Counted from the stretch's first letter, positions 3 through 25,001 are shown. The stretch is 28,855 nucleotides of DNA from Clostridia bacterium (GCA_030526225.1 JAUNDF010000011.1:3146-32000); one strand, 5' to 3'. Notes: generated from the sequence alone by a model not told the origin. Translations and numbers: made by a program.

Positions 3-1526
3 GATGTATCCTTCCGGTACATTTCCCAGGGCAAAACGCTGTATCATTCTGCCGGAGACGGCAAGCTGGAATCGGCGGTATACAGCATCTACGGCAAGGA
101 AATGATTCGCTCCATGCGGCGCGTTCACGGCCATCTGAACGGTGTGCTGATGGACGGCTTTGTGGGCATCGGGGAAGGGGCACGGAGCAATCATGCGCAT
201 CAGTCCTTCTTTATCAACGGCCGATACATGAAGAGCAATCTGCTTTCCATATCGGTGGATGCCGCCTGCCGTGAGCGGGTGATGATTGGCAAATATCCGT
301 CCTGTGTCCTGCATCTGACCATGCCTTATGATGTGGTGGATGTCAATGTGCACCCGAATAAACTGTAGGTGCGCTTTCAGGATGAGCAGGGCATTGCCGA
401 GGCAGTGGAAACCATCGTCCGGGAAGCTCTGCAGGATCGGGATGCATTGGAGCGCCCAACCCAGATGGTACTCTGTAAGGAACCGGAAACAAAGCCTGTT
501 GCTGCAACAGTGACCAAACAGCCGGTGATTGCGGCTGCTTCTGTGAAACCGACTGTTCCAACGATTACTCCCACAGCGTCTGTCCCTGTTGCATCAAAGC
601 CGACAGAACAGCAGAATGCTGTTGCTCCTGCTGTAAAAATGACAGTGCAGCCAGCTGTGACAGTGACTGCAGCGAAAACGGCCATTCCTTCAGCTGCTGT
701 ACCTGAAACGGAACCGCTCAAGCCTGCGGCGGTTACGGATAATCCTGCTGCAGCAGCGAAACAGGAGACGGAAACCGAACAGGTTCGTCCCTTTGCACCC
801 ATTGCCTACGCATCATCTGTTGTGAAAAATACTTCCGATGCTGTAGCGCAGTATATGGCAAGCACGGTATTACCGGAAACAAGCGGCTGGGCCAAAAAAG
901 AAATGCCCGCCGTGCAGACGGAGCAGCTTTCTTCTCTGACAGAAGAGCAGAAAAAGCCCCTCCGGCTGATTGGCACAGTATTCAACACCTTCATTCTGGT
1001 GGAATATGAAGAGCATCTGCTGATGATTGACCAGCATGCCGTTCACGAGCGCTTGCTGTTTGACCGCTTCAGCAAGGAAATCGACCAGAATCAGGCCGGG
1101 CAGCAGCTGCTGATTCCCATCATTATGCAGGTCAGCAGAAGAGAGCAGCAGCTGTTGGAGGCCAACAAGGACATGCTGTCCAAGGTTGGGCTGAACATCG
1201 AACCCTTTGGCGAAAACGAGGTATCCGTGCGCAGCATCCCCATGATTCTCGGTCAGCCGCAAACTGAAGCCTTTGTGCGGGAAATGATAGACCAGCTTCA
1301 AAGTGAACGCGGCACCGTCACCATGGAAAAGCGCCGGGCGTCCATTCTTCAGCTTGCCTGCAAAAAGGCTGTCAAGGGCGGCGATCGTTTGACGGAGGAT
1401 GAAATCCGCGACCTTGTGACACGCATGATAGATGAAAAGGTCACACCCACCTGTCCTCACGGCAGACCTCTGGTGATTTCTCTCAGCCACAGTGAAATTG
1501 ACAAGCGCTTCCGGAGAATTCAATGA
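3..1526 (+). CDS. mutL: DNA mismatch repair protein MutL (5' end outside the window), interrupted by an in-frame TAG at 366-368
   Basis: Frame 3 is open from base 3. It reads ...VDVNVHPNKL-TAG-VRFQDEQ, the MutL HPxKxEVRF motif with TAG at the Glu position. A P/A/T/V-rich linker follows, then the C-terminal endonuclease motif DQHAVHERLLFDR and CPHGRP. The gene ends in TGA at 1524-1526. Confidence 0.9.
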
Positions 1527-2452
1527 TGGATAAAAAAACATGCTGGGTTCTTACGGGCCCCACCGCCAGCGGAAAGACTGCGCTGTCAGTCCGGATTGCC
1601 AAGGCATATGACTGCGAAATCATCTGTATGGATTCCATGCAGATTTATCGAAGCATGGACATCGGTACAGCCAAGGTTACGCCGGAGGAAATGGATGGTG
1701 TGCCGCACCATCTGGTGGACATCATTGAACCCGAAGATAATTTTACGGTGGCGGACTACTGCCGACTGGCAGAACAGACGGCAGAGGAAATCTTCAGCCG
1801 CGGAAAACGACCGCTGTTTGTGGGCGGCACTGGGTTTTATCTTCGGGCGCTTCGTCATCCCATGCCCATGGGTGAAGTGCCCGGCAACGATGAGCTCCGC
1901 GCACGGCTGGAAAAGCAGGCAGAGACAGAGGAAGGAAAGCTGCAGCTTTGGCATCAGCTGAACGAGACAGACCCTGTGACAGCACAAAAGCTGCATGTCA
2001 ACGATGTGCGCCGCGTGGTTCGTGCCCTTGAGGTCAATCTGCTGACAGGAAAATCGTTTTCCAATCAGGCCAATGAATCACCGGAGCCGAAGTATCATTA
2101 CCGGGTGGTCAACCTCAGCATGGACAGAGCTGTGCTTTACGACCGCATCAACCGCCGTGTTGACCAGATGATGGACATGGGCCTTGAACAAGAAGTGCGG
2201 ATGCTGCTTGAGCGGGGCCTGACGGTGCAGAATCAGGCCATGAAGGCCATCGGATACAAGGAAATGGCGGCATATCTCGGCGGAGAATATGATTTGGACA
2301 AGGCGGTGTACGAAATTAAAATGGGTACACGGCATTATGCCAAACGGCAGCTGACATGGATGCGCCGGGAAGAGGATGTGCTTTGGGTAGACCCCACCTG
2401 TTCCGATGCATTTGAGCAGACTGCCGCGTGGTTTCAAAAAGGAGAAGAATAA
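1523..2452 (+). CDS. miaA: tRNA dimethylallyltransferase MiaA
   Basis: P-loop GPTASGKT and DSMQIYRSMDIGTAK are typical of MiaA. The start overlaps the mutL stop (ATGA), a GGAG RBS is present, and the stop is TAA. Confidence 0.95.
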   Translation: MMDKKTCWVLTGPTASGKTALSVRIAKAYDCEIICMDSMQIYRSMDIGTAKVTPEEMDGVPHHLVDIIEPEDNFTVADYCRLAEQTAEEIFSRGKRPLFVGGTGFYLRALRHPMPMGEVPGNDELRARLEKQAETEEGKLQLWHQLNETDPVTAQKLHVNDVRRVVRALEVNLLTGKSFSNQANESPEPKYHYRVVNLSMDRAVLYDRINRRVDQMMDMGLEQEVRMLLERGLTVQNQAMKAIGYKEMAAYLGGEYDLDKAVYEIKMGTRHYAKRQLTWMRREEDVLWVDPTCSDAFEQTAAWFQKGEE

Positions 2453-3703
2453 ATGAATTCCAATGAAAGAATCGACCAGGCAGAGCAGGCGCTTCAGCCG
2501 GTATTCAAGCGGATTGAACAAATTGAGGAGATTGGTCTGCGCCGCGTGCTGGATGTATTCCAGAAGCATCAGGTGGCATATCGCCATTTTGCTCCCACCA
2601 CCGGCTATGGCTATGACGATGTGGGTCGTGACACGCTGGAAAAAATCTTTGCGGATTTGTTTGATACCGAGGCAGCCATTGTCCGCCCGCATATTGCCAG
2701 CGGTACCCACGCACTGGCGCTGGCACTGTTCGGCCTGACCCGCCCCGGTGAGCATATTCTGTCTGTAACCGGTAAGCCCTATGATACGCTGGAGGAAATC
2801 ATCGGCATTTCCGAGCATAACACGCCCGTGGGTTCCCTGAAGGAAATGCAGGTATCCTACAGCCAGACCGAGTTGAATGAGCAGGGTGAAATCGATTTGG
2901 ATGCCGTGCGCGCCGCCATCCGTGAAAACACCACGCTGGTCATTGCCCAGCGCAGCCGCGGTTATGCATGGCGTCCGTCCCTGATGCCCGAGCAGTTTGC
3001 ACCCTTGGCGGATATGCTCCACAAGGAATATCCCCACATCACCCTGATGGTTGATAACTGCTACGGTGAATTTGTCTGTGAGAAGGAACCCAGCCATTAT
3101 GGCGTGGATGTTTGCGTTGGCAGCCTGATTAAGAATCCCGGCGGCGGACTTGCGCCTACCGGCGGATATCTGGTGGGCAAAAAGGATGCCATCGAGCGCA
3201 TCGCCTACCGTTTGACTGCTCCCGGCATCGGTCTTGAGGTCGGCTCCTATGCAGCCAGCTATCAGCCCTTCTATCAGGGCTTGTTTATGGCTCCTCACAC
3301 GGTGGCACAGGCTGTGAAAACGGCTTGTCTGGCAGCAAAGGTGTTTGAGGATCTTGGCATGGTGACCACTCCTGCATCCACCGATGTGCGCGCTGACATT
3401 ATTCAGGCGATTCAGATGAAAACCCCTGAAAGACTTGTAGCCTTCTGTCAGGGCATTCAGATGGCATCTCCCGTGGACAGCATGGCACTGCCCGAGCCCT
3501 GGGATATGCCGGGCTATCAGGATCAGGTGGTCATGGCGGCCGGTACCTTTGTATCCGGTGCTTCCATCGAACTGAGTGCCGATGCCCCCATGCGTGAACC
3601 CTTTACCGCCTACATGCAGGGCGGCCTGACCTATTCCCACGGCCGTATTGCCATGGCCATGGCACTGGACCGCATGGTGGAGCAGGGAACACTCACCATT
3701 TAA
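2453..3703 (+). CDS. ynbB: Aluminium-resistance / methionine gamma-lyase-like PLP-dependent protein (YnbB family)
   Basis: 416 aa. N-terminal ...TTGYGYDDVGRDTLEKIFADLF...ASGTHAL resembles the YnbB/Met_gamma_lyase family. AGGAG RBS, TAA stop. Confidence 0.8.
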   Translation: MNSNERIDQAEQALQPVFKRIEQIEEIGLRRVLDVFQKHQVAYRHFAPTTGYGYDDVGRDTLEKIFADLFDTEAAIVRPHIASGTHALALALFGLTRPGEHILSVTGKPYDTLEEIIGISEHNTPVGSLKEMQVSYSQTELNEQGEIDLDAVRAAIRENTTLVIAQRSRGYAWRPSLMPEQFAPLADMLHKEYPHITLMVDNCYGEFVCEKEPSHYGVDVCVGSLIKNPGGGLAPTGGYLVGKKDAIERIAYRLTAPGIGLEVGSYAASYQPFYQGLFMAPHTVAQAVKTACLAAKVFEDLGMVTTPASTDVRADIIQAIQMKTPERLVAFCQGIQMASPVDSMALPEPWDMPGYQDQVVMAAGTFVSGASIELSADAPMREPFTAYMQGGLTYSHGRIAMAMALDRMVEQGTLTI

Positions 3704-3715
3704 TTTCATCAATGT

Positions 3716-3745
3716 AAGCAATGTCGAAACGGCATTGCTTTTTTT
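3716..3745 (+). terminator. Rho-independent terminator after the ynbB-like gene
   Basis: Stem AAGCAATG / CATTGCTT with a 9-nt loop, followed by a run of T. Confidence 0.7.
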
Positions 3746-3767
3746 ATGCACTGGATTTCTGCTGAAA

Positions 3768-3796
3768 TTGACTTACCATTTTTCTGTTTGTATAAT
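3768..3796 (+). promoter_or_regulatory. Sigma-70-type promoter for azlCD
   Basis: TTGACT, 17 nt spacer, TATAAT, about 40 nt upstream of the azlC ATG. Confidence 0.5.
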
Positions 3797-3833
3797 GACT
3801 TTTATGCAGAAAACAACAAGGGAGCGTTGAGCG

Positions 3834-4580
3834 ATGAAACAGTCAATCAGCAAACGATTCGCTTTTTTGCCCGGTGCCATCAAAGCCACCATTCCGGTGA
3901 TGGCCGGTTATATTTTTCTTGGCACCGCATACGGAATAACCATGCGGGAAAGTGGATTTGGTACCATGTGGACGCTGCTGGTCAGCCTGCTGGTGTATGC
4001 GGGATCCATGCAGTTTGCGCTGGTGGGGCTGCTTTGTGCGGCTTTTTCGCCTGTTACAACGGTGTTAATGACGCTGATGGTCAATGCGCGTCATTTGTTC
4101 TATGGACTCAGTATGCTGCAGCCCTACCGGCATACGGGGAAGGCGAAGCCGTACCTGATTTTCTCTCTGACAGACGAAACATATTCCCTTGTGGCAAACG
4201 GTGCACCGACCAATGCTGACAGCACCTGTTGGTTTTTGACTGTATCCGCACTCAACCAGTTCTACTGGGTGCTGGGTTCTGTACTGGGTGCAGTGCTTGG
4301 TCAGGTGATTCCCTTTGATATGACGGGCATTGATTTTGCCATGACCGCCCTGTTTACTGTGATTGTCACCGAGCAGGCAGTCAATGCCTATCAAGCATGG
4401 AAAGCGGGCAAGCAGCCGTTTGTGGAAGCCTTTGGGCCTGCTCTGCTGGGAGCGGGTGCGACCATGGTTTGTCTTGTAACGGTGGGCAAACAGGCATTCC
4501 TGATTGCCGCCATGGTGATGATGCTTATTTGCTTCTATGTGATGTTCCGCAGGGAGGAGAGGAAGGGTGCCAATGAGTAA
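3834..4580 (+). CDS. azlC: AzlC-family branched-chain amino acid exporter subunit
   Basis: Polytopic membrane protein with AzlC-like IPVMAGYIFLG...YAGSMQF. It is followed by an overlapping azlD-like ORF. TAA stop. Confidence 0.85.
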   Translation: MKQSISKRFAFLPGAIKATIPVMAGYIFLGTAYGITMRESGFGTMWTLLVSLLVYAGSMQFALVGLLCAAFSPVTTVLMTLMVNARHLFYGLSMLQPYRHTGKAKPYLIFSLTDETYSLVANGAPTNADSTCWFLTVSALNQFYWVLGSVLGAVLGQVIPFDMTGIDFAMTALFTVIVTEQAVNAYQAWKAGKQPFVEAFGPALLGAGATMVCLVTVGKQAFLIAAMVMMLICFYVMFRREERKGANE

Positions 4581-4896
4581 TCTGCAAATTCTGCTGACCA
4601 TTCTGATTGCTGCGGCAGTGACGGTTTTCCTGCGCTTTGCGCCCTTTGTCATCTTCCGGGATGAAACAAAGGTGCCCGCCTTTATCCGCTGGCTCGGCAA
4701 CCGGCTGCCCATGGCGGTTATGGCCATGCTGCTGGTCTATTGCCTGAAGGATGTATCCTTTTCTTCTGCATCTTCCAGCATCCCGGCACTTGTGGGTGTG
4801 GCGGCGACGGTCCTGCTGCACCTGTGGAAAAAACAGATGATTCTTTCCATTGCAGGCGGTACTGCTGTATATATGCTGCTGATTCGCTTGTTGTAA
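4567..4896 (+). CDS. azlD: AzlD-family branched-chain amino acid transport protein
   Basis: 109-aa hydrophobic protein that overlaps the azlC end by 14 nt, the classic azlCD arrangement. TAA stop. Confidence 0.8.
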   Translation: MPMSNLQILLTILIAAAVTVFLRFAPFVIFRDETKVPAFIRWLGNRLPMAVMAMLLVYCLKDVSFSSASSSIPALVGVAATVLLHLWKKQMILSIAGGTAVYMLLIRLL

Positions 4897-4907
4897 AGCT
4901 GCAAACA

Positions 4908-4936
4908 TGGACAAACACTGAATTTTGTCGTATAAT
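4908..4936 (+). promoter_or_regulatory. Sigma-70-type promoter for the phoH-pgpH-ybeY/cdd-era operon
   Basis: TGGACA, 17 nt spacer, TATAAT, with TG at the extended -10 position. Confidence 0.5.
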
Positions 4937-5032
4937 ATGTAAGAAAACAAATTCTTATGCCCTGCATACAGCGGGACAAACCCGGAAATTGGCCATCCCG
5001 GTTTACGATGGCGAGCAAGGAGGTTCCCTTAT

Positions 5033-6007
5033 TTGAGTGATAAAAGAAAAATTTTGCTGGATATAGATTCCATGGATGCGTACAGAGCCCTTTTCGGGCT
5101 CAATGACAGAAACATCGCGCTGATTGAACAGGAATGCGGCGTGACTGTTTCACTGCGCGGAAATGAAATCTTTTTTTCTGGTGAAGCCGATGATATGGAC
5201 ATCGCCCAGGCTGTGATTGAAAAGCTTGTCCGCATGATTCAAAAGGGCGAGCAGGTGGACCGCAGCGGCATCCGGTACATGATTGCACTGGCCCGGGAAG
5301 ATAAGCTGGATGAAGCAGACGAAATCATGAAGTCCGTTGTTGCCATTACACACCGCGGAAAGCAGATTCGCTGCAAAACCTTTGGCCAACAGCAATATGT
5401 CAAATGCATCAAGGATCATGATTTGACCTTTGCCGTGGGTCCTGCCGGTACAGGCAAAACATATCTGGCCATGGCTCTGGCTGTTGTGGCACTGAAAAAT
5501 AAATAGGTGGAGCGTATTGTGCTGACCCGTCCCGCGGTGGAAGCCGGTGAAAAGCTGGGTTTCCTGCCCGGTGATCTGACTCAGAAGGTCGACCCGTATC
5601 TTCGCCCGCTGTATGATGCTTTGTTTGATTTTATGGGCGTTGATTCCTATCAGAAGCTGCTGGAGCGGGGGACAGTGGAGGTTGCGCCGCTGGCATACAT
5701 GCGCGGCCGGACACTTTCCGATTCGTTCATCATTCTGGACGAAGCACAGAACACCACCACCGAACAGATGAAAATGTTCCTGACCCGTATCGGCTTCCAT
5801 TCAAAGGTAGTCGTGACCGGTGACGTAACCCAGACCGACCTGCCCTTTGGCAAAAAATCCGGTCTTGTGGAAGCACTGGATGTTTTGAAGGATATTCCCG
5901 AAATCGGCATGGTGCATTTGACCGCCAATGACGTGGTCCGGCATGAACTGGTACAGCGGATTGTCCGCGCTTATGATCAGTATTATCATAAGGAGGGGGA
6001 AAAGTGA
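5033..6007 (+). CDS. phoH: PhoH-family ATPase, interrupted by an in-frame TAG at 5504-5506
   Basis: TTG start 9 nt after GGAGG. Walker A GPAGTGKT, then [32 protein letters not shown] in the same frame. The joined length of 324 aa is typical for PhoH. TGA stop. Confidence 0.9.
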
Positions 6008-8253
6008 AAGCCAAAAACGGAGTCCGCAGAAAGAATAACAGCTTTAAAAAGAAGCTGCGCCAGTGGGCGAATAGCGTAGATGCGAAATGTACGCTGATTG
6101 TTGTCATCTCCATGGTGATTATCGGCGCTCTGTTCTATGCGGTCAGTTCTCCTGAAAAATACGACCTGAAAATCGGTGCAATTTCCCATTACACCATTAC
6201 TGCCACCAAGGATGTTATTGACGAGGTGACCACCGAGGAAAGAAGGCAGGCGGCTGCCAACGCGGTGGAACCCACCTATCATCTGGAAGAGGGCGTAAAT
6301 GCATAGGTCATGCGCAGCCTTGCCGGTGTACTGAAGGAAATCGGCACCGTGCAGCAATACGGTCTGTCTCTTTTTGATGGCACGGAAACGCCCAAGGAGA
6401 AGCAGGCAAGGCAGTTTACTGCCGATGAACTGGCTTATGCGCGAAAGCTGACCACACAAATCAATCTGACGGATTACCAGCTGGCTACGGTCATGCGCAT
6501 GGAAAAAGCGCAGATTGAGGACATGACCTCTGTCTTGACCACCGTGGTTGAAAACTCACTGAACACCACCATCCGCGAGGGACAGGTTAACCAGTCCATT
6601 GATACCATGCTGCAGATTGCAGGCTACAAGATTGATACATCCCTGTTCCAAACGGTGGTTCCCACCATTCTGCGGACTTGCGTAAAGCCCAACATGGTCA
6701 TCGAAACGGAATCCACCGAACTGGCCAAAACAAAAGCACGGGAATCCGTGGAGCCTGTGATTTACCTGCAGGGCCAGAACATCATCAGGCAAGGCGAACG
6801 GGTCAGTGCAAATCAGATGCAGATGCTCCGCGCACTGGGCTTGATTGATGAAAACCAGATTGACTGGTGGCTCTACGTGGGTGCAATGGGCATGATTGTG
6901 GCCGCCATTGCCGTACTGTTGATTCTGCTGAGTGTATTTTCCTCTGAATCACTGCACGATATCCGGAAGATGGCAGTTATCATGATGGTGATTTGCATCA
7001 CCATGCTGCTCTGCTGCATCAGCATCCGGAGCATCAGCGTTTTCCTGGCACCTATTGCCATTTCCGCGCTGCTGATTACTGCGCTCATCGGTGTACCTGA
7101 AGGCATTGCCGGCGGTCTTTGCACTTCCATTCTGGCGGCAGCGTTTGTGCTGGGTGCACCTAATCCCTCTACCTCTGAGGTAACGCAGCTGCTGGTCATC
7201 GGCGTTGTGGATACCATGGCTGCAGCCCTGTTCCTGAAAACAAAGCCCTACCGTATCAAGGTTGTGCTTTGCGGACTCCTGATTTCCGTCATCGGCTTCT
7301 GTGCCATGCTCTGCGTGGGCATTATGACCAGCAGCAATTCCTCCAACGTGAAGGATAATGCGCTGATGTGCATTGAGTCCGGTATCCTCAGCGGCATTGT
7401 TGCGGTTGGTCTGCAGCCGATTCTGGAGGCGGTGTTTAATCTGGCAACGCCTGCCAAACTGATGGAACTGAGCAACCCCAATCACCCCTTGCTGCGCAGA
7501 CTTCTGCTGGAAGCCTCCGGCACCTATCATCATTCTATCATCGTGGCAAATCTGGCTGAGGCAGCGGCTGAGAAGATACATGCCAATCCGCTTCTGGCAA
7601 GAACCGGCGCGTATTTCCACGATGTGGGCAAAATGAAGCGCCCTCTATATTTCAAGGAAAATCAGATTGGCGATAACCCCCACGACAGAACAGACCCCTA
7701 CGTGTCCGCCGCCATTGTGACTTCTCACACGAAGGATGGTCTGAGCCTTGCGCTGAAGCATCGTCTGCCCAGAGAGATTCAGAAGATTATCGTGGAGCAT
7801 CATGGCAATACGCCGGTGATGTACTTCTACCACAAAGCAAGTCAGCTGGCCAACGGCAAGCCGGTGGATGTCAATGACTTCCGCTATGATGGACCTCGTC
7901 CCAGCTCTAAAGAAAGCGCCATTGTCATGCTGGCTGATACGGTGGAGGCGGCTGTGCGTTCCATGCCTGACCCCACGCCTCAGGCCATCGATGAAAAGAT
8001 ACGTAAGCTCGTTCAGGGCAAGGTGGATGACGGTCAGCTGAACGATGCACCGCTGACATTGCGCGACATTGACCGCATCTGTGTTGCCTTTGCTTCGGTG
8101 CTGAACGGTGCCTTCCATGAACGCATTGAATACCCGAATGTGGAGATTCCCAAGCAGCAGACTGTTTTGCCCGAAGAAGTCAGCATCGACCAGCTGACCG
8201 TAAAGCCCGGAAAAGAAAAGCAGGAGAGGACGGAGAAAAAGCATGAAGCTTGA
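6004..8253 (+). CDS. pgpH: 7TM-receptor HD-domain phosphohydrolase (PgpH/YqfF family), interrupted by an in-frame TAG at 6304-6306
   Basis: GTG start overlaps the phoH TGA. An N-terminal TM and extracellular region is followed by a multi-TM block and an HD domain ([14 protein letters not shown]...YFHDVGK...HHG). The two ORFs 6004-6306 and 6310-8253 share a frame. The joined length of 749 aa is typical. Confidence 0.85.
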
Positions 8254-9133
8254 CTGGTACTTTCATGTGGATGTGGACCCGTCTACCATCTCCCTGCTTC
8301 AAACTGCCGCTGATGCAGCGGTGCTGACAGAAGGCATAGCAAGGCCCTGCATGGTTTCGGTAACCATCTGCGATGATGAGGAGATTCAGGAAATCAACCG
8401 GGAATACAGGAATATCGACCGCGCCACCGATGTGCTGTCTTTCCCTTCTGTGAATTACCCCAAGGGCTTGACCGCAGGGCAGTGCGACAAGCAAATCAAA
8501 ATGGAATGGGATGCCGAAGCCGGTGCCTGTTTCCTTGGCGATTTGATTATTTCTCTGCCGCATGTAAAGGCACAGGCTGAGGAATACGGCCATTCCTTCC
8601 AGCGGGAGGCAGCGTATCTGCTGGTGCATGGTATGTGCCATTTGATGGGCTACGACCATATCGAAGAGGATGAAAGAAAGGTGATGCGTGCCATGGAGGA
8701 AAAGATTTTATCATCCATCGGGCAGACAAGAGATGACAATACTGTCACCGATGAACAGCTGCTTGCGCTTGCTCGTGAAGCCATGCAGCGCAGTTATTCG
8801 CCTTACTCGCACTATCCGGTGGGTGCGGCGCTTCTGTGCAATGATGGCCGTGTGTTTCAGGGCTGCAACATCGAAAACGCATCCTTTGGTCTGACAAACT
8901 GTGCCGAACGGACAGCTGTGTTCAAGGCTGTCAGCGAAGGCGCAACAGAATTCACCGCCATCGCCATTGCCTCAAAGGTATCTGCGCCGTGGCCCTGCGG
9001 TGCCTGCCGGCAGGTGCTGAATGAATTCGCCCCTCAAATTCGTGTGCTTGTTACCTGGGATGGCGGTCAGGGTGAAATGCTGCTCACCGATTTGCTGCCC
9101 CATGGTTTTGGTCCCAAAGACCTGCAATCATAA
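8243..9133 (+). CDS. ybeY: Fusion protein: rRNA maturation RNase YbeY (N-terminal) plus cytidine deaminase (C-terminal)
   Basis: YbeY zinc motif HGMCHLMGYDH is at about aa 130-140. Cdd motifs SPYSHYPVGAAL, NCAERTAV and PCGACRQ are in the C-terminal half. It is a single uninterrupted ORF with a TAA stop. Confidence 0.85.
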   Translation: MKLDWYFHVDVDPSTISLLQTAADAAVLTEGIARPCMVSVTICDDEEIQEINREYRNIDRATDVLSFPSVNYPKGLTAGQCDKQIKMEWDAEAGACFLGDLIISLPHVKAQAEEYGHSFQREAAYLLVHGMCHLMGYDHIEEDERKVMRAMEEKILSSIGQTRDDNTVTDEQLLALAREAMQRSYSPYSHYPVGAALLCNDGRVFQGCNIENASFGLTNCAERTAVFKAVSEGATEFTAIAIASKVSAPWPCGACRQVLNEFAPQIRVLVTWDGGQGEMLLTDLLPHGFGPKDLQS

Positions 9134-10054: not shown

Positions 10055-10091
10055 AAGCCCCGCACAGTGAGCAATGCACCGTGCGGGGCTT
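10055..10091. terminator. Bidirectional hairpin terminator between the convergent era and hemW genes
   Basis: Stem AAAGCCCCGCAC / GTGCGGGGCTT followed by TATTTTA. It lies 8 nt after the era TAA and 4 nt after the extended hemW TAA. Confidence 0.7.
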
Positions 10092-10094
10092 ATT

Positions 10095-11255
10095 TTAATC
10101 CATGGTTTCCATCAATTCAACCAATAGCATATTTTGCAAATCCATGCCTTTGCGCGTAAGATGCCAACGCCCATCCTAACAGGCCATAAGCTGGCGCTGC
10201 TCCAAACTGAGCAATTGAGGATAGAAGCAGGTATCCTTCAGGGAAATCTGATGCATGGCAAAAAACTGCTCCTGCGATATCCCTTGATTGGTTCGCAGTC
10301 CAAGCATCAGCGTTTCAAACTGAGCATCCTTTCGGCTGATTGCTTCGCGGGGCAGCTGTGAAAAGCTTTTATTATCCACCATGCTGATATATCCGGCGAT
10401 ATCTGCCGGATTGGTCTGACGATAATACAGGTTCTGTTCATCAGAGCAATACAGCATGGAAGTGGACGAAGCGCCGATGCCAAGGTAGGGAATCTGCTGC
10501 CAATAGCCGAGGTTATGACGGCATTCGTAGCCTTCCAAAGCAAAATTGCTGATTTCGTATTGGTGGTAACCATTCTCCGAAAGCAGCTGCAGACAATGGT
10601 CATACATCAGCCGTTCCTCTTCATCCTCAGGCAGACGAAGCTTGCCGCAATCAAGGTCATTTTTCAGTGGCGTATTTTCTTCAGGGATTAAGCCGTAACA
10701 GCTTAAATGCGTGGGGGACAGGGCAATTGCCTTTTTTAATGTTTCGTCCCATTGTTCAAGGGTTTGTGTGGGCAGGCCAAACATCAAATCAAGATTGATG
10801 TTTCTGATTCCATGCCGTCTGATATCTGTTACTGCCTGCTGCACTTCATCAAAGGAATGAATCCTGCCGAGGATGCGTAAAAGCTCCGGCTGGGCGGCCT
10901 GCATACCAAGAGAGATTCGGTTGATGCCATTTTCAGCCGCAGCATCAAGCCAAGCATCCTTTAATGTACCGGGATTTGCCTCACTGGTGATTTCAGCATC
11001 TTCCGCAATGTGAAAGCATCTCTGCATATCCGTCAGCAGTTTTTTCAGCTGTGGCCCTGTCAACACGGAAGGGGTGCCGCCGCCAATGAATACAGAGGTG
11101 ACAGTCTCACCGGAAAAATGGTTGGAGTAATAGGCCATTTCCTTTTCCACAGCCTCAAGGTAACGATCTGCCATGGACAAAAAACCTGCGTAGGAAGGGA
11201 AATCGCAGTAGCGGCATTTCTGTTTACAAAACGGGATATGAATGTATAATTCCAT
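10095..11255 (-). CDS. hemW: Radical SAM heme chaperone HemW (HemN-like), with an in-frame TAG at 10176-10178
   Basis: CKQKCRYCDF radical-SAM motif near the N-terminus. Past the TAG the frame continues as DGRWHLTRKGMDLQNMLLVELMETMD to a TAA at 10095-10097. That tail matches the usual HemN_C end (...dG..v.LT.kG..l.N.v). The joined length is 386 aa. Confidence 0.85.
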
Positions 11256-13717: not shown

Positions 13718-14464
13718 TTACATACCGGACATGAGCAAATCAAGAATGCCATATTGTTCCAGAAAACCGTAAAGGCTCTGATAGGTGGAAACGGGCAGTT
13801 CCTCCAGCACAGGCAGAGCCGTTTTGATAAATGGCTTCATGATGCGGTTGATGAATGTAAACAGCGATCTGTCATTGACTGACAGAATGTTGAACCCTGT
13901 GGCAGAAGCGGGACCGAAAACAGGGCATTGCGCTTCTTTGACGGTCATGGCGCCGTATGCGGTCAGCATGGGCGTTCCATCCTCTGCCCGAATCTGTGAA
14001 ATGGAGAAATTGTAGCCATCGCTCTTGCCGCTGAAGGCCACATCGAGACCAAGCCCGGATTCTTCCAATGCGGTGCCGCCGATGCGGATATGGCCGCTTA
14101 AATCAAATGTTGTGGGCAATGTTTCAGGCAGACCGTCAGCCAGAATATCAACGTAAAGAACAAGCTCGCCGGATTCGTTGGTAACCTTGGCATCGCATTT
14201 GTACAGGGTAGGGGAGTTGATGTAGTCGATGGTCACCGTGTTGCCGTTCAAATCGGGCGGCAAACGCAGCTGCCAGCTTTCGCTCTTGCCTTCTCTGACA
14301 CGGTCAAAGAGCACCATATCACCCATGGTATAGGTATCGCGGTTGCCGTCAAAGGTGACCAGAATGCCATCTTCGGGGACAACCTGTTCAAACCACACAG
14401 CGGTATTGGAGAGGGCATTCAGGATATACTCGTCAATGCCGGTTTGACTGCCCAACGCTTCCAC
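13718..14464 (-). CDS. Hypothetical protein, probably the C-terminal part of a frameshifted secreted protein
   Basis: 248-aa ORF with only a GTG start and no SD. It overlaps the upstream ORF by 46 nt in the -1 frame. TAA stop. Confidence 0.55.
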   Translation of the reverse strand: MEALGSQTGIDEYILNALSNTAVWFEQVVPEDGILVTFDGNRDTYTMGDMVLFDRVREGKSESWQLRLPPDLNGNTVTIDYINSPTLYKCDAKVTNESGELVLYVDILADGLPETLPTTFDLSGHIRIGGTALEESGLGLDVAFSGKSDGYNFSISQIRAEDGTPMLTAYGAMTVKEAQCPVFGPASATGFNILSVNDRSLFTFINRIMKPFIKTALPVLEELPVSTYQSLYGFLEQYGILDLLMSGM

Positions 14465-15075
14465 ATAATTGAGGAAAGGAATTCAGCAAGATCAAGCAGA
14501 TACCATTTGGGGATGACATGTGTGGTCTTGTCGCGTTCCATGACGTAGTACCAGGCGGCTCTTGTCCAGTCGACCGCCTGCCGCAGGTTGTCATTGGGCA
14601 GGGCCAGGGCAATATACTGCAGGGGCAAATCAAGCCGGGAGTAGGTTTTGATGGCAAATTCAACCAGCCCCTTGTAGTCAATCAACAGAGGCATATCTTC
14701 CCCGAACAGATTGCTCTTGATGGTCCAGTGGGAATCCTCGCCGAAAACCTTCAGGGTGACATCGGCCCGGTCATTAAACCTGAACACCAGATTGGTCATA
14801 AAGGAAGGACCGTAGCTGTCCCAAAGGCCTTCCACAGAGACAATATCCAGTGCATCGGCAACGCCGGTCAAAAGCTCCCGATCAGCTTCAGGATACGCCT
14901 GTGCGTTCATCTTAATCTTGCTGTTAAAGAAGAATGCAAATTTCGGGGTATTTTCATCGTAGATATATTCGTAATAATGCTCAGGCATTTGCTCTTCTTC
15001 TGCCAGAGAAAACAGTGGCAGAAGGCATATGACCAGGATAAAAGCGAGAATTCTCTTAAGCTTGTGAGCCATCAT
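14419..15075 (-). CDS. Hypothetical secreted protein, probably the N-terminal part of a frameshifted gene
   Basis: AAAGGAG RBS and signal peptide MMAHKLKRILAFILVICLLPLFSLA. I recognise no family. It ends in TGA inside the overlap with the next ORF. Confidence 0.6.
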   Translation of the reverse strand: MMAHKLKRILAFILVICLLPLFSLAEEEQMPEHYYEYIYDENTPKFAFFFNSKIKMNAQAYPEADRELLTGVADALDIVSVEGLWDSYGPSFMTNLVFRFNDRADVTLKVFGEDSHWTIKSNLFGEDMPLLIDYKGLVEFAIKTYSRLDLPLQYIALALPNDNLRQAVDWTRAAWYYVMERDKTTHVIPKWYLLDLAEFLSSIMWKRWAVKPALTSIS

Positions 15076-16000: not shown

Positions 16001-16032
16001 TGCCGGTTCAGCTCCTTTCCTTGAATCAGTCT

Positions 16033-17864: not shown

Positions 17865-17895
17865 AAAGCAACCTCTTTCAAAAACATTTCATATT

Positions 17896-17924: not shown

Positions 17925-17999
17925 GCAAAACAAAGCGCACAATGGCTGAGTGAATGTAAAAAATGTGTTTCTCCGGCAGAAAACCAATCAGTCATTTGA

Positions 18000-18027
18000 T
18001 TGAAAAAAACGGAAGCTGTGCTATAAT
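18000..18027 (+). promoter_or_regulatory. Sigma-70-type promoter for the aminopeptidase gene
   Basis: TTGAAA, 16 nt spacer, TGcTATAAT (extended -10). Confidence 0.5.
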
Positions 18028-18086
18028 ACCATCAGGCTCCGATAATCTGAATATTCATTCAACTTTGAAAGGAATTGAAGCAACCT

Positions 18087-19478
18087 ATGTACAGAGAAAA
18101 TGCATGGAAAAAATATGATGCGGAAGAGCTTGCAAAGCTCAATGCCTTTGCAGAAAAATACAAAGACTACATTTCCACGGCCAAGACAGAGCGTGAATGT
18201 GTTGACGAATCTGTCAAGCTGGCAGAAGCAGCCGGTTTCCGTAATCTTGATGACTGCATCAGAAGCGGTGAAGCCCTGAAGGCCGGTGAACGCGTGTATC
18301 GCAACTGGATGGGCAAGGACTTTATGCTGTTTATTGTCGGCGAAAAGGGCCTTGAAGCGGGCATGAACATTCTGGGTGCACACATCGACTCTCCCAGAAT
18401 CGATGTCAAGCAGAATCCTGTCTATGAGGAAGCCGATATGGCATACCTTGATACCCACTACTATGGCGGCATCAAGAAGTACCAGTGGGTTTCCATTCCT
18501 CTGGCCATTCATGGTGTTGTGGTCAAGAAGGACGGCACAAAGGTGCAAATCAATATCGGCGAAAAGGACGATGACCCTGTATTCTACATCAGCGACCTGC
18601 TCATTCATCTGGCACAGGAACAGATGGGCAAAACTGCCGCAAAGGTCATTGAGGGCGAGGAACTGAATCTGCTGGTTGGTTCCATTCCGCTGGCTGATGA
18701 AGAAAAGGAGCCAGTGAAAGCCAATCTGCTGAAGATTCTCAGCGAGGAGTACGGCCTTGAGGAGCAGGATTTTGTCTCTGCCGAGCTGGAAATCGTGCCT
18801 GCCGGCAAGGCGCGTGATTTGGGCTTTGACCGCAGCATGATCATGGGCTATGGCCACGATGACCGCGTTTGCGCATATCCCTCCATGGCCGCTGTTCTTG
18901 ATTATGAGGGTACCCCCGAATACACGCTTTGCGCGGTGCTGACAGACAAGGAAGAAATCGGCAGTGTAGGTGCTACCGGCATGCAGTCCCGCTATTTTGA
19001 AAACACCGTTGCGGAACTGATGGCGCTCACCGGCACCATGACCGAGCTTGCGCTGCGCCGGGCAATGCAGAACAGCAGAATGCTCTCCTCCGATGTCAGC
19101 GCCGGCTTTGACCCTGCCTTTGCGGGCGTATTTGAAAAGAAAAATGCCGCTATTCTGGGCAATGGTGTGTGTTTTAACAAGTTCACCGGCCGCGGCGGAA
19201 AGTCCGGCAGCAACGATGCCAATGCAGAGTTTGTCGGTCAGGTCCGTGCCATTATGGATGAAGCCGGTGTATCCTTCCAGACAGCTGAACTGGGCAAGGT
19301 GGATGTTGGCGGCGGCGGAACAATCGCCTATATCTGTGCAAACTACGGCATGAACGTGATTGATGCCGGCGTGCCTGTGCTGAGCATGCATGCGCCCTGC
19401 GAAGTCATCAGCAAGGCTGATTTGTGGGAAGAGTACAAGTGCTACTGCGCATTCCTGAAGGGTGCAAAGGCGCTGTAA
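18087..19478 (+). CDS. M18-family aminopeptidase
   Basis: MYRENAWKKY...KTERECV...LGAHIDSPR is typical of clostridial M18 aminopeptidases. The ATG at 18087 is preferred over the TTG at 18075 because of spacing from the GAAAGGA RBS. TAA stop. Confidence 0.85.
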   Translation: MYRENAWKKYDAEELAKLNAFAEKYKDYISTAKTERECVDESVKLAEAAGFRNLDDCIRSGEALKAGERVYRNWMGKDFMLFIVGEKGLEAGMNILGAHIDSPRIDVKQNPVYEEADMAYLDTHYYGGIKKYQWVSIPLAIHGVVVKKDGTKVQINIGEKDDDPVFYISDLLIHLAQEQMGKTAAKVIEGEELNLLVGSIPLADEEKEPVKANLLKILSEEYGLEEQDFVSAELEIVPAGKARDLGFDRSMIMGYGHDDRVCAYPSMAAVLDYEGTPEYTLCAVLTDKEEIGSVGATGMQSRYFENTVAELMALTGTMTELALRRAMQNSRMLSSDVSAGFDPAFAGVFEKKNAAILGNGVCFNKFTGRGGKSGSNDANAEFVGQVRAIMDEAGVSFQTAELGKVDVGGGGTIAYICANYGMNVIDAGVPVLSMHAPCEVISKADLWEEYKCYCAFLKGAKAL

Positions 19479-19485
19479 TATAACG

Positions 19486-19521
19486 AAAAAAGCAAGACTG
19501 CCGGATGCAGTCTTGCTTTTT
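19486..19521. terminator. Bidirectional rho-independent terminator
   Basis: Stem AAGCAAGACTG / CAGTCTTGCTT, flanked by an A-run upstream and a T-run downstream. It lies between convergent genes. Confidence 0.75.
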
Positions 19522-19528
19522 GATTGCA

Positions 19529-20419: not shown

Positions 20420-20471
20420 ACTGTTTCCTCCAAAATTGAATCAATTGCGAGCTTAAAAAATCGAATAAAAC

Positions 20472-20509
20472 AAAAAACCGCAATCCATATTTTAACATGA
20501 CGATTGCGG
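20472..20509 (-). terminator. Rho-independent terminator after scpB
   Basis: On the minus strand: CCGCAATC, 16-nt loop, GATTGCGG, then TTTTTT. Confidence 0.6.
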
Positions 20510-20521
20510 CGGGTCAAGTCA

Positions 20522-21085
20522 TTACGCGATGATTTCGGGGTGTTCGCCCTCATCCTTTTCCTGTGCTGGATTTTCGGGCATGGGCGGGAGCTCGTCCAAA
20601 TCGGAAATGCCGAAATGGCTCAGGAATTCGTCGGTGGTTCCATACAGAATCGGGCGGCCCAGGGTATCCTTACGGCCAACCTCTGCAATCAGATTCTTGT
20701 TAACCAATGCCTGTACAGAGTAGTCGCACTTTACACCGCGGATTTGCTCGATTTCGGCCTTGGTCACCGGCTGCTTGTAGGCAATCACCGCCAGCGTTTC
20801 CATGATGGTTTGGGACAGGGATTGCTTTTGTACGGGCTGCAGCATATGCACCACATCCTCGGCATACAGGGCGCGGGTGGTCAGCTGCACATGCTTGCCG
20901 AACTGCTTGATGGCAAAGCCACGCTGATTGTAATCATAATCGCTTTTTAAGGCTTCAATCGCCTTGTTCAGCTCGCCTATGGTGCAGCCGATGGCCTTTG
21001 CCAGGTCATCCAGCCGAACGGCTTCTCCGGCAACAAACAGAATCGCCTCAATCTTGCCCTCAATGGTGCCGTTTTCGTTATTCAT
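20522..21085 (-). CDS. scpB: Segregation and condensation protein B
   Basis: IEAILFVAGEAV...LSQTIMETLAVIAYKQPVTKAEIEQIRGV...GRPILYGTT is typical of ScpB. It overlaps the scpA end by 8 nt. TAA stop. Confidence 0.95.
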   Translation of the reverse strand: MNNENGTIEGKIEAILFVAGEAVRLDDLAKAIGCTIGELNKAIEALKSDYDYNQRGFAIKQFGKHVQLTTRALYAEDVVHMLQPVQKQSLSQTIMETLAVIAYKQPVTKAEIEQIRGVKCDYSVQALVNKNLIAEVGRKDTLGRPILYGTTDEFLSHFGISDLDELPPMPENPAQEKDEGEHPEIIA

Positions 21086-21845
21086 AATCGGTCAGATCTC
21101 CTTCAATGGTTGCCTCTGCCTGACCCGGCAGAAGGATGATATCGCCATAGGTTTCAGACTGGTCGATGTGCATTTGTCCCAGCTTCAGCAGCTCCAGCAT
21201 GGCAAGGAAAAGTGTGACAACTTCTTCCTTGGTGGGTGCTTCGCTGAAGGTTTCGGTAAATGACAGGCGCTCGTTTGTTTTCAGCTTCTTCAGCAGATGC
21301 AGCATGCAATCCTCCACCGTGTGTGAATCGCGATGGATATCACGGGGCGCGTAGTGGTTGACCTGCAGTTCTTCGTCTGCATCGGGCTTGCGCATCCAGA
21401 TGCGCAGGAAGGCCTATGTCAGCCCTTCCATGGTCAGGCCCACCAGCTCAACCTCCTGCGGCGGCAGGGGATACTCTGCCGGCAGCTTGGAGAATGCTTC
21501 CTTGGCGGCAGCTTCAAAATTCTGCATGGCAGAGGCCGTTTCGCGAAAACGCTTGTATTCCTCCAAACGGCGAATCAATGCCTGCTCGGGGTCCTCTTCA
21601 TCCTCAATGACGGGCGGTCTGGGCAGCATGGCGCGGCTCTTGATTTCAAGCAGGGTAGCAGCCATGACCAGAAAATCGGTGGCATCCTCCATGTTCAGGT
21701 CAGATGCGTTCTTTACAGATTCAATGTACTGATCTGTGATTTCGCTGATGAAAATATCCTTGATGTCGATCTTCGCCTTGCCAATCAGGTGCAGAAGCAA
21801 ATCAAGGGGGCCGTCAAAGTCTTTTAACTGGAAGGTCATCGGCAT
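21078..21845 (-). CDS. scpA: Segregation and condensation protein A, interrupted by an in-frame TAG at 21414-21416
   Basis: N-terminal FDGPLDLLLHLIGKAKIDIKDI is typical of ScpA. ORFs 21414-21845 and 21078-21395 share a frame. The junction reads LTMEGLT-TAG-AFLRIWMRKPD. The joined length of 255 aa is typical. TAA stop. Confidence 0.9.
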
Positions 21846-21848
21846 GGA

Positions 21849-22658
21849 TTACGCACCACCTGTAATCAGTAAGAAGAAACGGACAACTCCGGAGTAGATA
21901 TTTCTGTTCAGGAAGGAAAGAATACCGGAGAGCGCGCCGGACAGGCAAAGGACAATCAGCACAATCTGGCAGATGCTGAAGGCTCTGCGGTCAAGCTGCA
22001 GCTTTCCCTTCAGCAGGGTGTCGTTGATCAGATGGTAACCATCCAACGGGGGGATGGGCAGCAGATTGAAAATGGCAAGGGACAGATTCACCTGAGCCAT
22101 CATCAGCAGAAAACGCTGCACATATACCAGCCAGGGCTGTGCCAGAGAAGAAGCAAACACAGGCTCCACACTGCCGGACATGATGTTGTAGGCGAACTGA
22201 TAGCCGGGGTTCAGCATCGGCTCAAGACTGCCGGCAACACCGTGAAAATAGCTGATGAATTCAGCGTCCCACATGAAGTGATTGACTACAACGCTGAGCA
22301 GGGAGCAGACAAGAAAAAGGGCCAGATTGGTGCAGATGCCCGCAATGGAAACAAAGAAATCATCCCGGCGATAATTCCTGAAGTTGTAGGGATTGACGGG
22401 AACGGGCTTTGCCCAGCCAAATCCAAGGAAAAACATGCAGACAGTACCGAGAGGATCAAGGTGGTGGCTGGGCTTCAGGGATAATCTGCCCATCATCTTT
22501 GCGGTGGGGTCACCGCATTTGTAGGCAACATAGCCATGGGCGCACTCGTGCAGAATCAGACTGGACAGCACCACCACACAGAAATAAAGTGCATATACCA
22601 CAAACCCCATTGGGTCATTTTTCAAAAAGGTAAAATACCATTCAAGCCGTGAACTCAT
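21849..22658 (-). CDS. M50-family site-2 metalloprotease (membrane)
   Basis: HECAHG zinc motif and NLLPIPPLDG motif in a polytopic protein. TAA stop. Confidence 0.85.
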   Translation of the reverse strand: MSSRLEWYFTFLKNDPMGFVVYALYFCVVVLSSLILHECAHGYVAYKCGDPTAKMMGRLSLKPSHHLDPLGTVCMFFLGFGWAKPVPVNPYNFRNYRRDDFFVSIAGICTNLALFLVCSLLSVVVNHFMWDAEFISYFHGVAGSLEPMLNPGYQFAYNIMSGSVEPVFASSLAQPWLVYVQRFLLMMAQVNLSLAIFNLLPIPPLDGYHLINDTLLKGKLQLDRRAFSICQIVLIVLCLSGALSGILSFLNRNIYSGVVRFFLLITGGA

Positions 22659-22672
22659 TCAAGACCTCCTGA

Positions 22673-22700
22673 TTGCAATTGTCTGACTTCTAATTATAAT
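22673..22700 (+). promoter_or_regulatory. Sigma-70-type promoter for the TrmH-family methyltransferase gene
   Basis: TTGCAA, 16 nt spacer, TATAAT. It leaves a leader of about 120 nt. Confidence 0.45.
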
Positions 22701-22824
22701 GCATTCCACTGCCAACTGCAACTTTTTTGTTGAAGTTGGGGATAAAACAGGAAACAGAAAAGGAAAACAGGAAAAGATATCGAATAATGAAATATGCATT
22801 ACTATGGAACGGCGGAGGAACACC

Positions 22825-23568
22825 ATGCAGGAGATTACAAGCCTGAAAAACCCGAAAGTCGCATTGTGGAAAACCCTGAAGGACAGAAAGGGCAGAAAAG
22901 CCACGGGTACCTTCCTTGTGGAGGGCAGAAAGATGGTGGAGGAAGCCATTGCCTCCGGGTTTGAAATCGATGCGCTGCTTGTGCAGGATGATTATGGTTA
23001 CGATTGTCCTCCGGTTCATTGCGCTGTTTATCGCATGCCAGCGCACGTGATTGCCGCTGTGTGTGACACAAAAACGCCCCAGGGAATTGCGGCTGTTGTT
23101 AAAATGAAGCAGATTGAGCTGCGTTCCGGCAAGCTGATTGCACTGGATGGTGTGCAGGATCCCGGCAATGTGGGTACCATTATCAGAACGGCAGACTGCG
23201 CCGGGATTGACGGTATTGTTTTGACAGAGCAATGTGCCGATGTGTACAGCCCCAAGGTACTTCGGGCCACCATGGGCAGCATTTTCCGGATGCCCATGAC
23301 GGTAACGGCTGATCTTCCTGCTTTCCTGAAGGCATTTGTTCAAGAGGGCGGCAGTGTCATCTCTTCCCAGCTGGACGGTACACCTTTCTACGAACGGACT
23401 GATGTGGCGGAGGCCTTCTGCCTTGTCATCGGCAACGAGGGCAACGGCGTGTCGGATGAAGTGCAGGCAACTGCCACCCACCGGCTGAAGCTTCCTATGC
23501 GCGGCGGAGCGGAATCGCTCAACGCGGCGGTGGCAGCGGGCATTATGATGTACGATTTGACAAGATAA
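22825..23568 (+). CDS. TrmH/SpoU-family RNA 2'-O-methyltransferase
   Basis: ATG at 22825 follows GGAGGAA. SpoU motifs LDGVQDPGNVGTIIRTA, VIGNEGNGVS and ESLNAAVAAGIMMY are present. TAA stop. Confidence 0.85.
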   Translation: MQEITSLKNPKVALWKTLKDRKGRKATGTFLVEGRKMVEEAIASGFEIDALLVQDDYGYDCPPVHCAVYRMPAHVIAAVCDTKTPQGIAAVVKMKQIELRSGKLIALDGVQDPGNVGTIIRTADCAGIDGIVLTEQCADVYSPKVLRATMGSIFRMPMTVTADLPAFLKAFVQEGGSVISSQLDGTPFYERTDVAEAFCLVIGNEGNGVSDEVQATATHRLKLPMRGGAESLNAAVAAGIMMYDLTR

Positions 23569-23576
23569 ACGATTTA

Positions 23577-23602
23577 GATCGGGTTGCTGCCCGGTCTTTT
23601 TT
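23577..23602 (+). terminator. Rho-independent terminator after the methyltransferase gene
   Basis: Stem GATCGGG / CCCGGTC (one G-U pair), 6-nt loop, TTTTTT. Confidence 0.6.
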
Positions 23603-25001
23603 ATTGCAATGCCTGATAGAGGATATCAAACAGCTGGGGCAGTGCGTTTTCATCAACAGATGAATAGTCTATCACAAATTGACCGTTCGGCGCTTCAGCG
23701 GGATTTGCATAATAGGATGAAAGGGGGATGATTTTGATTTTTGCCTTTTCTGCACGCTGTACAACCTAAGCGTCGGTCAGGCGGGTGTTGAGCCGGAGAA
23801 TAAAATGGAAACCGGCATCCTTCTCTTCAATAGATGAAATGCTTTTTAGGGAAGAGGCGTTGAACAGATTGAGGATTCGTTCCCGTCTGGAACGGTATTG
23901 CTTTCTGACACGATGAATATGCCGGTCAAAATGTCCGCGCTTGATAAACATGGCCAGCGTGTATTGCTCCAGATTGGAAACGCTGCAGCTGTAGAAAGAC
24001 AGCTTCTTTCTGTAAGCCTCCATGAGTGATTCGGGAAGCACCATATAGCTGATGCGGATGGTGGAGGACAGCGTTTTGGAAAAGGTGTTCATATAAATAA
24101 CGCGATTGCTCTGGTCAATGCTTTTCAACGCTGGGATGGGGCGGCCGGTCAATCGCAGCTCGCTGTCGTAATCATCCTCGATGATGAACCGGTTGTTTGC
24201 CTGACTGGCCCACTGAAGAAGGGCAAGTCTGCGGCTGTACGGTGTAACAAGCCCGGTGGGGAAGTGATGGGCAGGGGAAATGTGGACAACAGCCGCTTCA
24301 GAGCTGGCTAATTGACTGATGCTGATGCCCTGCTCATCCAGATTGATTGGAATACACTTTGCCCGGTGACTTTCATAGACCTTCCTGATTTTTGAATAAC
24401 CAGGGTTTTCCACGGCGTACAGCAAGTCATTGCCCAAAAGCTGTACCAGAATGCTGTACAGATAATCTGTACCGGCACCGACGATAATCTGCTCGGGAGA
24501 AGCGTGGATGCCGCGGTATGATTCAAGGTGCTCGGCAATGGCCTGCCGAAGTTCAAAGATGCCTTGTCCGGGTGAAACGGAAAGAAGCTCCTTCTGGCAG
24601 GTGGACAGAACTTCCCGCGTAAGCTTTGACCACAGCGAAAAGGGAAAAACGCTGGCACTGATTTTGTTGCTGGTCAAGTCTGCAAGATAAGTTGTTTCAA
24701 CAGTGGCAGTCTCAGAGACAGCGGCAGTGGAGGGAATTCCGGCTGTGCCATGTTCGCAGGAAATGTCGGCAACAAAATAGCCTTTCTTCTCAATGGCATA
24801 TATATATCCTTCCGACAGCAGCTGGGCATACGCGTTGGCGATTGTAATCACGCTGACACTGTTAGCCTCTGCCATGGCACGCTTGGAGGGCAGCTTTTCC
24901 GAGGCCTTCAGCTTGCCGGAAAGAATATCCTGCCTGATGCAAAGATAGATGTATTCAAACAGCGGCTTTGAACCGCGCAGCTCCATGTTGTAGGTAAGCA
25001 T
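23601..25001 (-). CDS. MocR/PdxR-family regulator (GntR HTH fused to an aminotransferase-like domain), with an in-frame TAG at 23766-23768
   Basis: ATG at 25001 lies 8 nt after GAGG. The HTH region reads LPSKRAMAEANSVSVITIANAY, and the aminotransferase fold carries FSKTL. After the TAG the frame continues as VVQRAEKAKIKIIPLSSYYANPAEAPNGQFVIDYSSVDENALPQLFDILYQALQ to a TAA at 23601. That is a typical C-terminus for this family. The joined length is 466 aa. Confidence 0.85.

Follow-up and report, generated by a model that had tools for sequence, protein, structure and literature searches.

Six conserved genes interrupted by in-frame TAG codons

We report on a 28,855 bp stretch of DNA from an uncultured, gut-type organism deposited as "Clostridia bacterium" (GCA_030526225.1, JAUNDF010000011.1:3146-32000; hereafter the window, with positions counted from its first base), in which six conserved genes, namely mutL, phoH, pgpH, hemW, scpA and a gene for a MocR/GabR-type regulator (mocR), each contain a single in-frame TAG codon. 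The window is a dense bacterial chromosome segment with a guanine-plus-cytosine (GC) content of 52%, for which we built 27 gene models, 25 of them supported by Pfam matches. Several of these genes are arranged in operons typical of Bacillota, including mutL-miaA, phoH-pgpH-ybeY/cdd-era, hemW-(SLOG gene)-lepA, and scpA-scpB, the last situated 3' of a site-2 protease gene. A Pfam search recovered no phage genes in the window; every gene that it annotated has a cellular housekeeping role and belongs to a conserved bacterial operon. When a codon-usage gene caller was trained on the 27 genes, it returned the same set, with six of them broken at TAG under the standard bacterial code (table 11). The interrupted genes and the gene set are as follows:

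Positions 366-368, plus strand: TAG in mutL (gene fragment 3-1526, stop TGA), residue 122; the Pfam DNA_mis_repair match (residues 27-143) spans the site
Positions 5504-5506, plus strand: TAG in phoH (gene 5033-6007, stop TGA), residue 158; the Pfam match (residues 111-315) spans the site
Positions 6304-6306, plus strand: TAG in pgpH (gene 6004-8253, stop TGA), residue 101, in the extracellular 7TMR-HDED domain (residues 56-282)
Positions 10176-10178, minus strand: TAG in hemW (gene 10095-11255, stop TAA at 10095-10097), residue 360, in HemN_C (residues 306-373)
Positions 21414-21416, minus strand: TAG in scpA (gene 21078-21845, stop TAA overlapping the scpB start), residue 144; Pfam match at residues 20-236
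Positions 23766-23768, minus strand: TAG in mocR (gene 23601-25001, stop TAA), residue 412, in Aminotran_1_2 (residues 136-431)
Positions 3-28391: the 27 gene models used as the codon-statistics set, with 8,986 sense codons, among them 380 GAA, 217 GAG and 6 TAG

A first-pass annotation of this DNA had called exactly one in-frame TAG in each of the six genes, and its coordinates proved exact. It had further held that the same frame continues beyond the TAG, which is borne out by a single uninterrupted Pfam match spanning the site in all six genes, and the lengths it gave for the read-through products were reproduced to the residue (PhoH 324, PgpH 749, HemW 386, ScpA 255 and MocR 466 amino acids (aa)). 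Its statement that none of these genes is interrupted by TAA or TGA can be extended to the entire set: across the 27 gene models we found no interruption by TAA, TGA or frameshift, and the six TAGs are the only in-frame TAGs.

In the alignments that we followed residue by residue, as well as in every ScpA, PhoH and MocR homologue that was counted, the TAG column is occupied by one residue without a gap, indicating that the codon corresponds to one amino acid and is not skipped. The sequence 3' of the TAG retains family-specific features, such as the conserved LTxxG motif that follows the hemW site in all relatives and the conserved "GIK..LSxYY" block that follows the mocR site. The extended hemW and mocR frames were also confirmed to end in TAA beside GC-rich hairpins, with a gap of three bases:

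Positions 10056-10091: hairpin (AAGCCCCGCAC...GTGCGGGGCTT) between the convergent era and hemW genes, adjoining the TAA at 10095-10097, read directly from the sequence
Positions 23576-23597: terminator-like hairpin between the convergent trmH and mocR genes, three bases from the TAA at 23601-23603

The former escaped our pattern scan because its loop is longer than 8 nucleotides (nt).

The amino acid at the TAG columns

We then examined which residue homologous proteins carry at the six positions, and observed that glutamate (Glu) is the commonest at every one of them. The column is most constrained in MutL, where, as the first-pass annotation had proposed, the TAG occupies the Glu of the HPxKxEVRF motif; this Glu is invariant in the homologue alignment and is also found in the MutL chains of the PDB entries 9n2k, 1bkn and 1b62. 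The ScpA column is nearly as strict among the 120 closest homologues, which are 70-79% identical (E 106, A 6, D 5, Q 3), and in the relative L165 the codon at this position is GAG. At the PhoH column the residues are more mixed (E 54, R 29, Q 27 and K 17 among 150 representatives), the closest relatives (77-79% identity) and L001 all having E. Glu likewise leads at the columns of PgpH (E 17, Q 6, S 6 in 33 aligned homologues) and MocR (E 41, D 20, Q 13, V 13 in 119 homologues), and at the variable column of HemW it is the commonest residue with 16 of 87, followed by D 9, R 8 and Q 8.

A simple Codetta-style likelihood over these columns returned posteriors of 0.9999 for Glu, 7e-5 for glutamine (Gln) and 2e-5 for Asp, and still 0.999 for Glu upon exclusion of MutL; these figures overstate the certainty, as the homologues are not independent, but the ranking is clear nonetheless. 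The initial suggestion of "Glu or Gln" at these sites is thereby upheld and narrowed to Glu. Read in this manner, TAG would make up about 1% of the Glu codons of the window (6 of 603, with 380 GAA and 217 GAG). GAG accounts for about 15% of the codons in the window that lie one change away from TAG (GAG, CAG, AAG, TGG, TAY, TTG and TCG), and under unselected mutation the chance of all six TAGs falling at Glu columns is roughly 1e-5.

Terminators, codon context and RNA structure

The 27 genes of the window end in TAA (20) or TGA (7), and none ends in TAG. As controls we ran the same caller on 54 loci around lepA, each of 15 genes or more, from other Clostridia and Bacillota; TAG makes up 14% of their stops and is absent from 8 of the 54. 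The TAA-rich usage is itself unusual for a genome with 52% GC, and would fit a conversion of former TAG stops to TAA.

The base following the TAG is G in all six cases (positions 369, 5507, 6307, 10175, 21413 and 23765), in comparison to 43% of the GAG codons (p ~0.007). In E. coli, a purine at this +4 position makes classical amber suppression more efficient, and the G may have been selected because it aids the decoding of UAG, perhaps against competing residual release factor 1 (RF1). In the 100 nt starting from each TAG we detected neither a shared nor an unusual RNA fold, with z-scores of -1.84, -0.28, 0.08, 0.45, -0.20 and 0.48. The lack of a common downstream structure suggests that the decoding is general rather than signal-dependent, and on the same grounds we rejected a downstream recoding element comparable to the selenocysteine or pyrrolysine (Pyl) insertion elements (SECIS- or PYLIS-like).

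Relatives and conservation beyond the TAG codons

Relatives were collected by LepA scans of genome and metagenome collections, with identities of at most 85% among the matches listed; the nearest among these are L081 (LepA 85%), L001/RUG199 (83%), and L082 and L083 (81%). The ScpA proteins of the nearest relatives are 77-79% identical to that of the window, and that of L165 is 78% identical. In the nearest relatives among the matches listed, the orthologues of the six genes are uninterrupted and TAG is a true stop. We observed no in-frame TAGs in the relatives, the sequence past their TAG-ended reading frames does not look coding, and the tRNAs in their loci include nothing relevant. As these relatives retain TAG as a stop, the change would have to be very recent and narrow in its distribution, unless sister lineages remain unsampled. 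In six of the relatives' loci (L162-L164, L166, L084 and L006) about 87 genes lack any TAG terminator, and the use of TAG as a stop may be low in parts of this group and uneven across it.

Truncated PgpH homologues raised the possibility of TAG recoding in the wider clade, which we rejected, as the split gene in L166 results from a frameshift and has a TGA stop. In this contig, an ENA metagenome sequence, both pgpH and a GH127 gene are split by frameshifts (at 10958-10985 and 18941-18960, respectively) with TGA or TAA stops, probably as a consequence of long-read assembly errors unrelated to TAG.

The part of each protein encoded past the TAG was also compared with the part preceding it. The ratio of C-terminal to N-terminal identity is 0.61 for MocR, against 0.61 expected, and 1.05 for PgpH, against 1.03 expected, indicating no excess divergence after the TAG in either protein. 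PhoH and HemW, compared with their L001 orthologues, are more similar after the TAG than before it.

The TAG codons in deposited data

The metagenome-assembled genome (MAG) at NCBI (locus tags Q4C54_, proteins MDO4483390-MDO4483414) carries the TAGs, and its annotation presents the TAG-bounded pieces as separate ordinary proteins and not as pseudogenes (MDO4483390.1, MDO4483398.1, MDO4483409.1, MDO4483410.1 and MDO4483413.1). ScpA is thus represented by pieces of 143 aa and 105 aa (MDO4483409/MDO4483410), HemW by one of 359 aa and MocR by one of 411 aa, while the C-terminal piece of MutL is labeled a hypothetical protein (the MutL record being MDO4483390). Such fragment annotation of this organism's proteins has entered the protein databases unnoticed. 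The TAG-terminated pieces of ScpA, HemW, PhoH and PgpH are also present in the Logan assembly of the run SRR24915835; since this assembly independently has four of the six TAGs, they are not the product of one assembler. A Logan contig of 2.6 kb falls wholly inside the window. Exact matching against a collection of 15 billion proteins retrieved no second genome of the species, the corresponding clusters having one member, or two with the Logan copy.

Weighing the explanations

Based on the observation that TAG alone interrupts these genes, that it does so at Glu columns, and that the genes concerned are conserved, we propose that decoding of UAG as Glu is the best reading of the window, and that in this organism UAG is probably translated as glutamate and not as a stop. 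Domain continuity and the Glu columns provide comparative support for the use of TAG as a sense codon, which was the central claim of the first-pass annotation; that it is a general sense codon is extrapolated from 29 kb of one MAG. The decoding could take the form of either a completed stop-to-sense reassignment or a constitutive, efficient amber suppression. In the lack of any TAG decoding, 6 of 27 genes (22%) would be disrupted, among them scpA, which is translationally coupled to scpB, a state that is implausible for a viable cell.

An alternative that accepts the sense codon is that TAG specifies some other residue: Gln, by means of a tRNA-Gln with a CUA anticodon as in the TAG-recoded gut phages, Pyl, by means of pylTSBCD, or a near-cognate mixture following the loss of RF1. 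We regard this as unlikely. At four of the six columns Gln ranks second or third in frequency, CAG is converted to TAG by a single transition, and Clostridia make Gln-tRNA via Glu-tRNA-Gln, such that a CUA tRNA could carry either residue; yet the column likelihood favors Glu over Gln by about 1e4, the MutL column is invariant, only 3 of 120 ScpA homologues have Q, and under a Gln assignment new TAGs would be expected mainly at Gln columns. Similarly, Pyl-decoding Bacillota exist, but insertion of Pyl would not be expected at conserved acidic sites such as the invariant Glu of MutL or the 88% Glu of ScpA, and the Pfam search found no methylamine methyltransferase or pyl gene within the window. 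Programmed readthrough or termination-reinitiation confined to these sites, with TAG acting as a normal stop elsewhere, appears to us the least credible of the alternatives. A GTG directly follows the TAG in mutL and phoH, an ATG lies two codons on in pgpH, and the +4 base is G throughout. However, these GTG codons specify the conserved Val of "EV" motifs, hemW, scpA and mocR have no restart codon beside the TAG, the splits fall within single domains such that two separate polypeptides are unlikely to work, and no shared structure lies downstream (z-scores of -1.8 to +0.5).

The remaining alternatives deny the sense codon. Genuine nonsense mutations in recently inactivated pseudogenes, arising for instance in a mutator lineage or through a G:C-to-T:A mutator, might be suspected from the presence of mutL itself among the interrupted genes, from the fit of all six changes to one mutation type (GAG to TAG), from the slightly greater divergence of ScpA after its TAG, and from the annotation of the pieces at NCBI as separate or partial proteins. 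Nevertheless, we hold such decay to be quite improbable. The expected mixture of lesions is not seen, the 27 genes showing TAG only and no TAA, TGA or frameshift. As GAA (380 codons) outnumbers GAG (217), unselected Glu-to-stop changes would mostly give TAA, and a G-to-T mutator should have produced more GAA-to-TAA than GAG-to-TAG changes (p ~0.002 for six of six being TAG); it would also have made TGA from GGA, of which there is no instance. A MutL defect, moreover, yields transitions, by which CAG or TGG, but not GAG, would become TAG. Decay would further have to disable about one gene in five inside conserved core operons, while leaving MocR and PgpH without excess divergence after the TAG. 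Still more remote, in our estimation, is a sequencing, assembly or base-modification artefact in the form of a systematic G-to-T miscall at GAGG sites. All six sites do read TAGG, and they come from a single sample, with both assemblies probably built from the same reads; but there is no motif-wide signature, given that 94 in-frame GAG-G sites are left intact and TAGG is common in the other frames (66 instances in the window). Systematic miscalls linked to methylation are transitions and not G-to-T changes, an artefact would not select only the first positions of in-frame Glu codons, indel errors like those of the long-read relative L166 are lacking, and two different assemblers agree at four sites. 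A miscall linked to Dcm or another motif was specifically rejected, as no site is CTAGG and both TAGG and GAGG are common elsewhere.

Several points weigh against the decoding of UAG as Glu. There is no support for it at the level of the clade, the nearest relatives among the matches listed (LepA 81-85%) all stopping at TAG. All that is known of the organism comes from a single MAG and a single sequencing run; both assemblies probably draw on one set of reads, so that a read-level artefact keeps a small probability. The part of ScpA encoded after the TAG (21078-21413, minus strand) is somewhat more diverged than expected, its C-terminal to N-terminal ratio being 0.77 compared to 0.885 among the relatives. 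The G after every TAG could indicate a context-dependent process. The lack of TAG terminators in 27 genes is by itself weak evidence, since 8 of the 54 control loci also have no TAG stops. Finally, the three tRNA genes within the window are all tRNA(CAT), with no CUA anticodon among them; prfA is likewise not among the genes of the window.

Comparison with known codon reassignments

We found no report of UAG reassignment in bacteria in the literature searched, nor any mention there of the sequencing run or the locus tags. According to Shulgina and Eddy (2021), every known bacterial code change reassigns UGA (PMC8629427), and in a 2026 study UGA-to-Trp and UGA-to-Gly are still the only bacterial changes listed (PMC13462651). 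A preprint on the archaeal code 34 states that TAG is otherwise a stop in bacteria and that a code with all TAGs as sense has not been observed in them (10.1101/2024.09.30.615893). The claim of the first-pass annotation that TAG is not described as a general sense codon in housekeeping genes of a Firmicute holds in the literature searched, in which only UGA changes are described (PMC8629427, 10.1101/2024.09.30.615893, PMC13462651). Bacterial and archaeal assemblies were screened by k-mers in a 2026 preprint, which likewise reports no bacterial TAG reassignment and warns of contamination artefacts for stop codons (10.64898/2026.04.02.715157). Such an artefact does not apply here, given bacterial genes that end mainly in TAA.

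The residue assignment proposed here is the same as that of the nuclear codes in which UAR is read as Glu, found in peritrich ciliates (table 30) and Blastocrithidia (table 31). These organisms are eukaryotes in which UAA and UAG are both reassigned, with accompanying changes in eRF1. In the window, by contrast, most genes (20 of 27) end in UAA. In Blastocrithidia, Glu is inserted by tRNA-Glu with altered anticodons (PMC12153298).

The bacterial UGA codes (tables 4 and 25) of Mycoplasmatales, several insect symbionts, Absconditabacteria/Gracilibacteria and, in a 2026 report, Eggerthellaceae are likewise chromosomal stop-to-sense changes, and came to light in the same way, through stops lying in frame where housekeeping genes are conserved. 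They specify Trp or Gly, involve the loss of release factor 2 (RF2), and usually occur in genomes of extreme GC or reduced size (PMC8629427, PMC13462651), whereas in the window the codon is UAG, the residue is Glu and the release factor concerned would be RF1, with 52% GC and a gene content that looks ordinary. TAG is also a sense codon in gut phages with code 15, such as Lak and crAss-like phages, which use a tRNA with a CUA anticodon (10.1101/2021.08.26.457843, PMC10879173); there it is confined to phage genes, is read as Gln, and the hosts use the standard code, in contrast to the chromosomal housekeeping genes and Glu of the window. Pyl decoding, including the archaeal code 34 with every TAG read as Pyl, would resemble the proposed code in that TAG is read through genome-wide in housekeeping genes and TAG terminators are depleted, but it depends on pylTSBCD, occurs in methylamine-using archaea, and affects positions that are not conserved (10.1101/2024.09.30.615893), unlike the conserved Glu positions observed here. 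In engineered E. coli, namely C321.deltaA and later strains, every TAG terminator has been taken out, the cells can do without RF1, and UAG can be given to an amino acid (PMC11903333, PMC6207430); the window would represent a natural counterpart to these strains.

Other features of the window

The three tRNA(CAT) genes lie in tandem at 25077-25353 on the minus strand, the first of them being initiator-like and the next two 100% identical to each other. The same AAGAACTCTT...AAGAGTTCTT hairpin comes after each of the identical copies, pointing to a local duplication of recent date in which the terminator was copied along with the gene. In the phoH operon, ybeY and the cytidine deaminase gene (cdd) are fused into one gene coding for 296 aa (8243-9133, plus strand; Pfam YbeY 17-158, dCMP_cyt_deam 162-264), and there is no dgkA between ybeY and era in the window. 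The same fusion is present in the relative L166 (12388-13290), and may serve as a marker of this lineage. A Pfam match is lacking for two adjacent, slightly overlapping genes at 13718-15075 on the minus strand, which code for 248 and 218 aa; a hydrophobic, signal-like segment is located at the N-terminus of the second product at least.

A possible route to the reassignment and its implications

Decoding of UAG as Glu would call for a tRNA with a CUA anticodon that is charged by glutamyl-tRNA synthetase (GluRS). The simplest origin of such a tRNA would be a duplicated tRNA-Glu(CUC) in which C36 has changed to A. Clostridia usually possess a non-discriminating GluRS, which is already tolerant of variation at anticodon position 36, and the tRNA change might be more easily tolerated with such an enzyme. 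GAG and TAG would then be synonymous, and new TAGs could arise through neutral G-to-T changes, at about 1% of the Glu codons. Former TAG terminators would have given way to other stops, TAA for the most part, and RF1 would have been lost or weakened. We offer more tentatively, and with confidence falling somewhat short of an even chance, the fuller proposal that this is the first natural bacterial code with a full reassignment of UAG to one of the standard amino acids, the change having taken place recently in a free-living-type gut member of the Clostridia with ordinary GC, by means of a tRNA-Glu-type CUA tRNA and with RF1 lost or disabled.

If true, this would be a chromosomal UAG-to-Glu code, set against natural bacterial stop-codon changes that, in the literature searched, all concern UGA. 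At the density seen in the window, if it held genome-wide, about a fifth of the genes would be mis-annotated. A possible natural pair of a UAG-reading Glu tRNA and its GluRS might also be of use as a tool. The mid-GC, non-reduced genome would not fit the usual link of such changes with genome reduction or extreme GC, and RF1 would prove dispensable in a natural bacterium just as in the engineered E. coli strains; a barrier to phages and horizontal gene transfer is a further, speculative consequence. Moreover, with the standard code retained in close relatives, the event would be young enough for the route of reassignment to be studied directly, with capture and an ambiguous intermediate set against each other.

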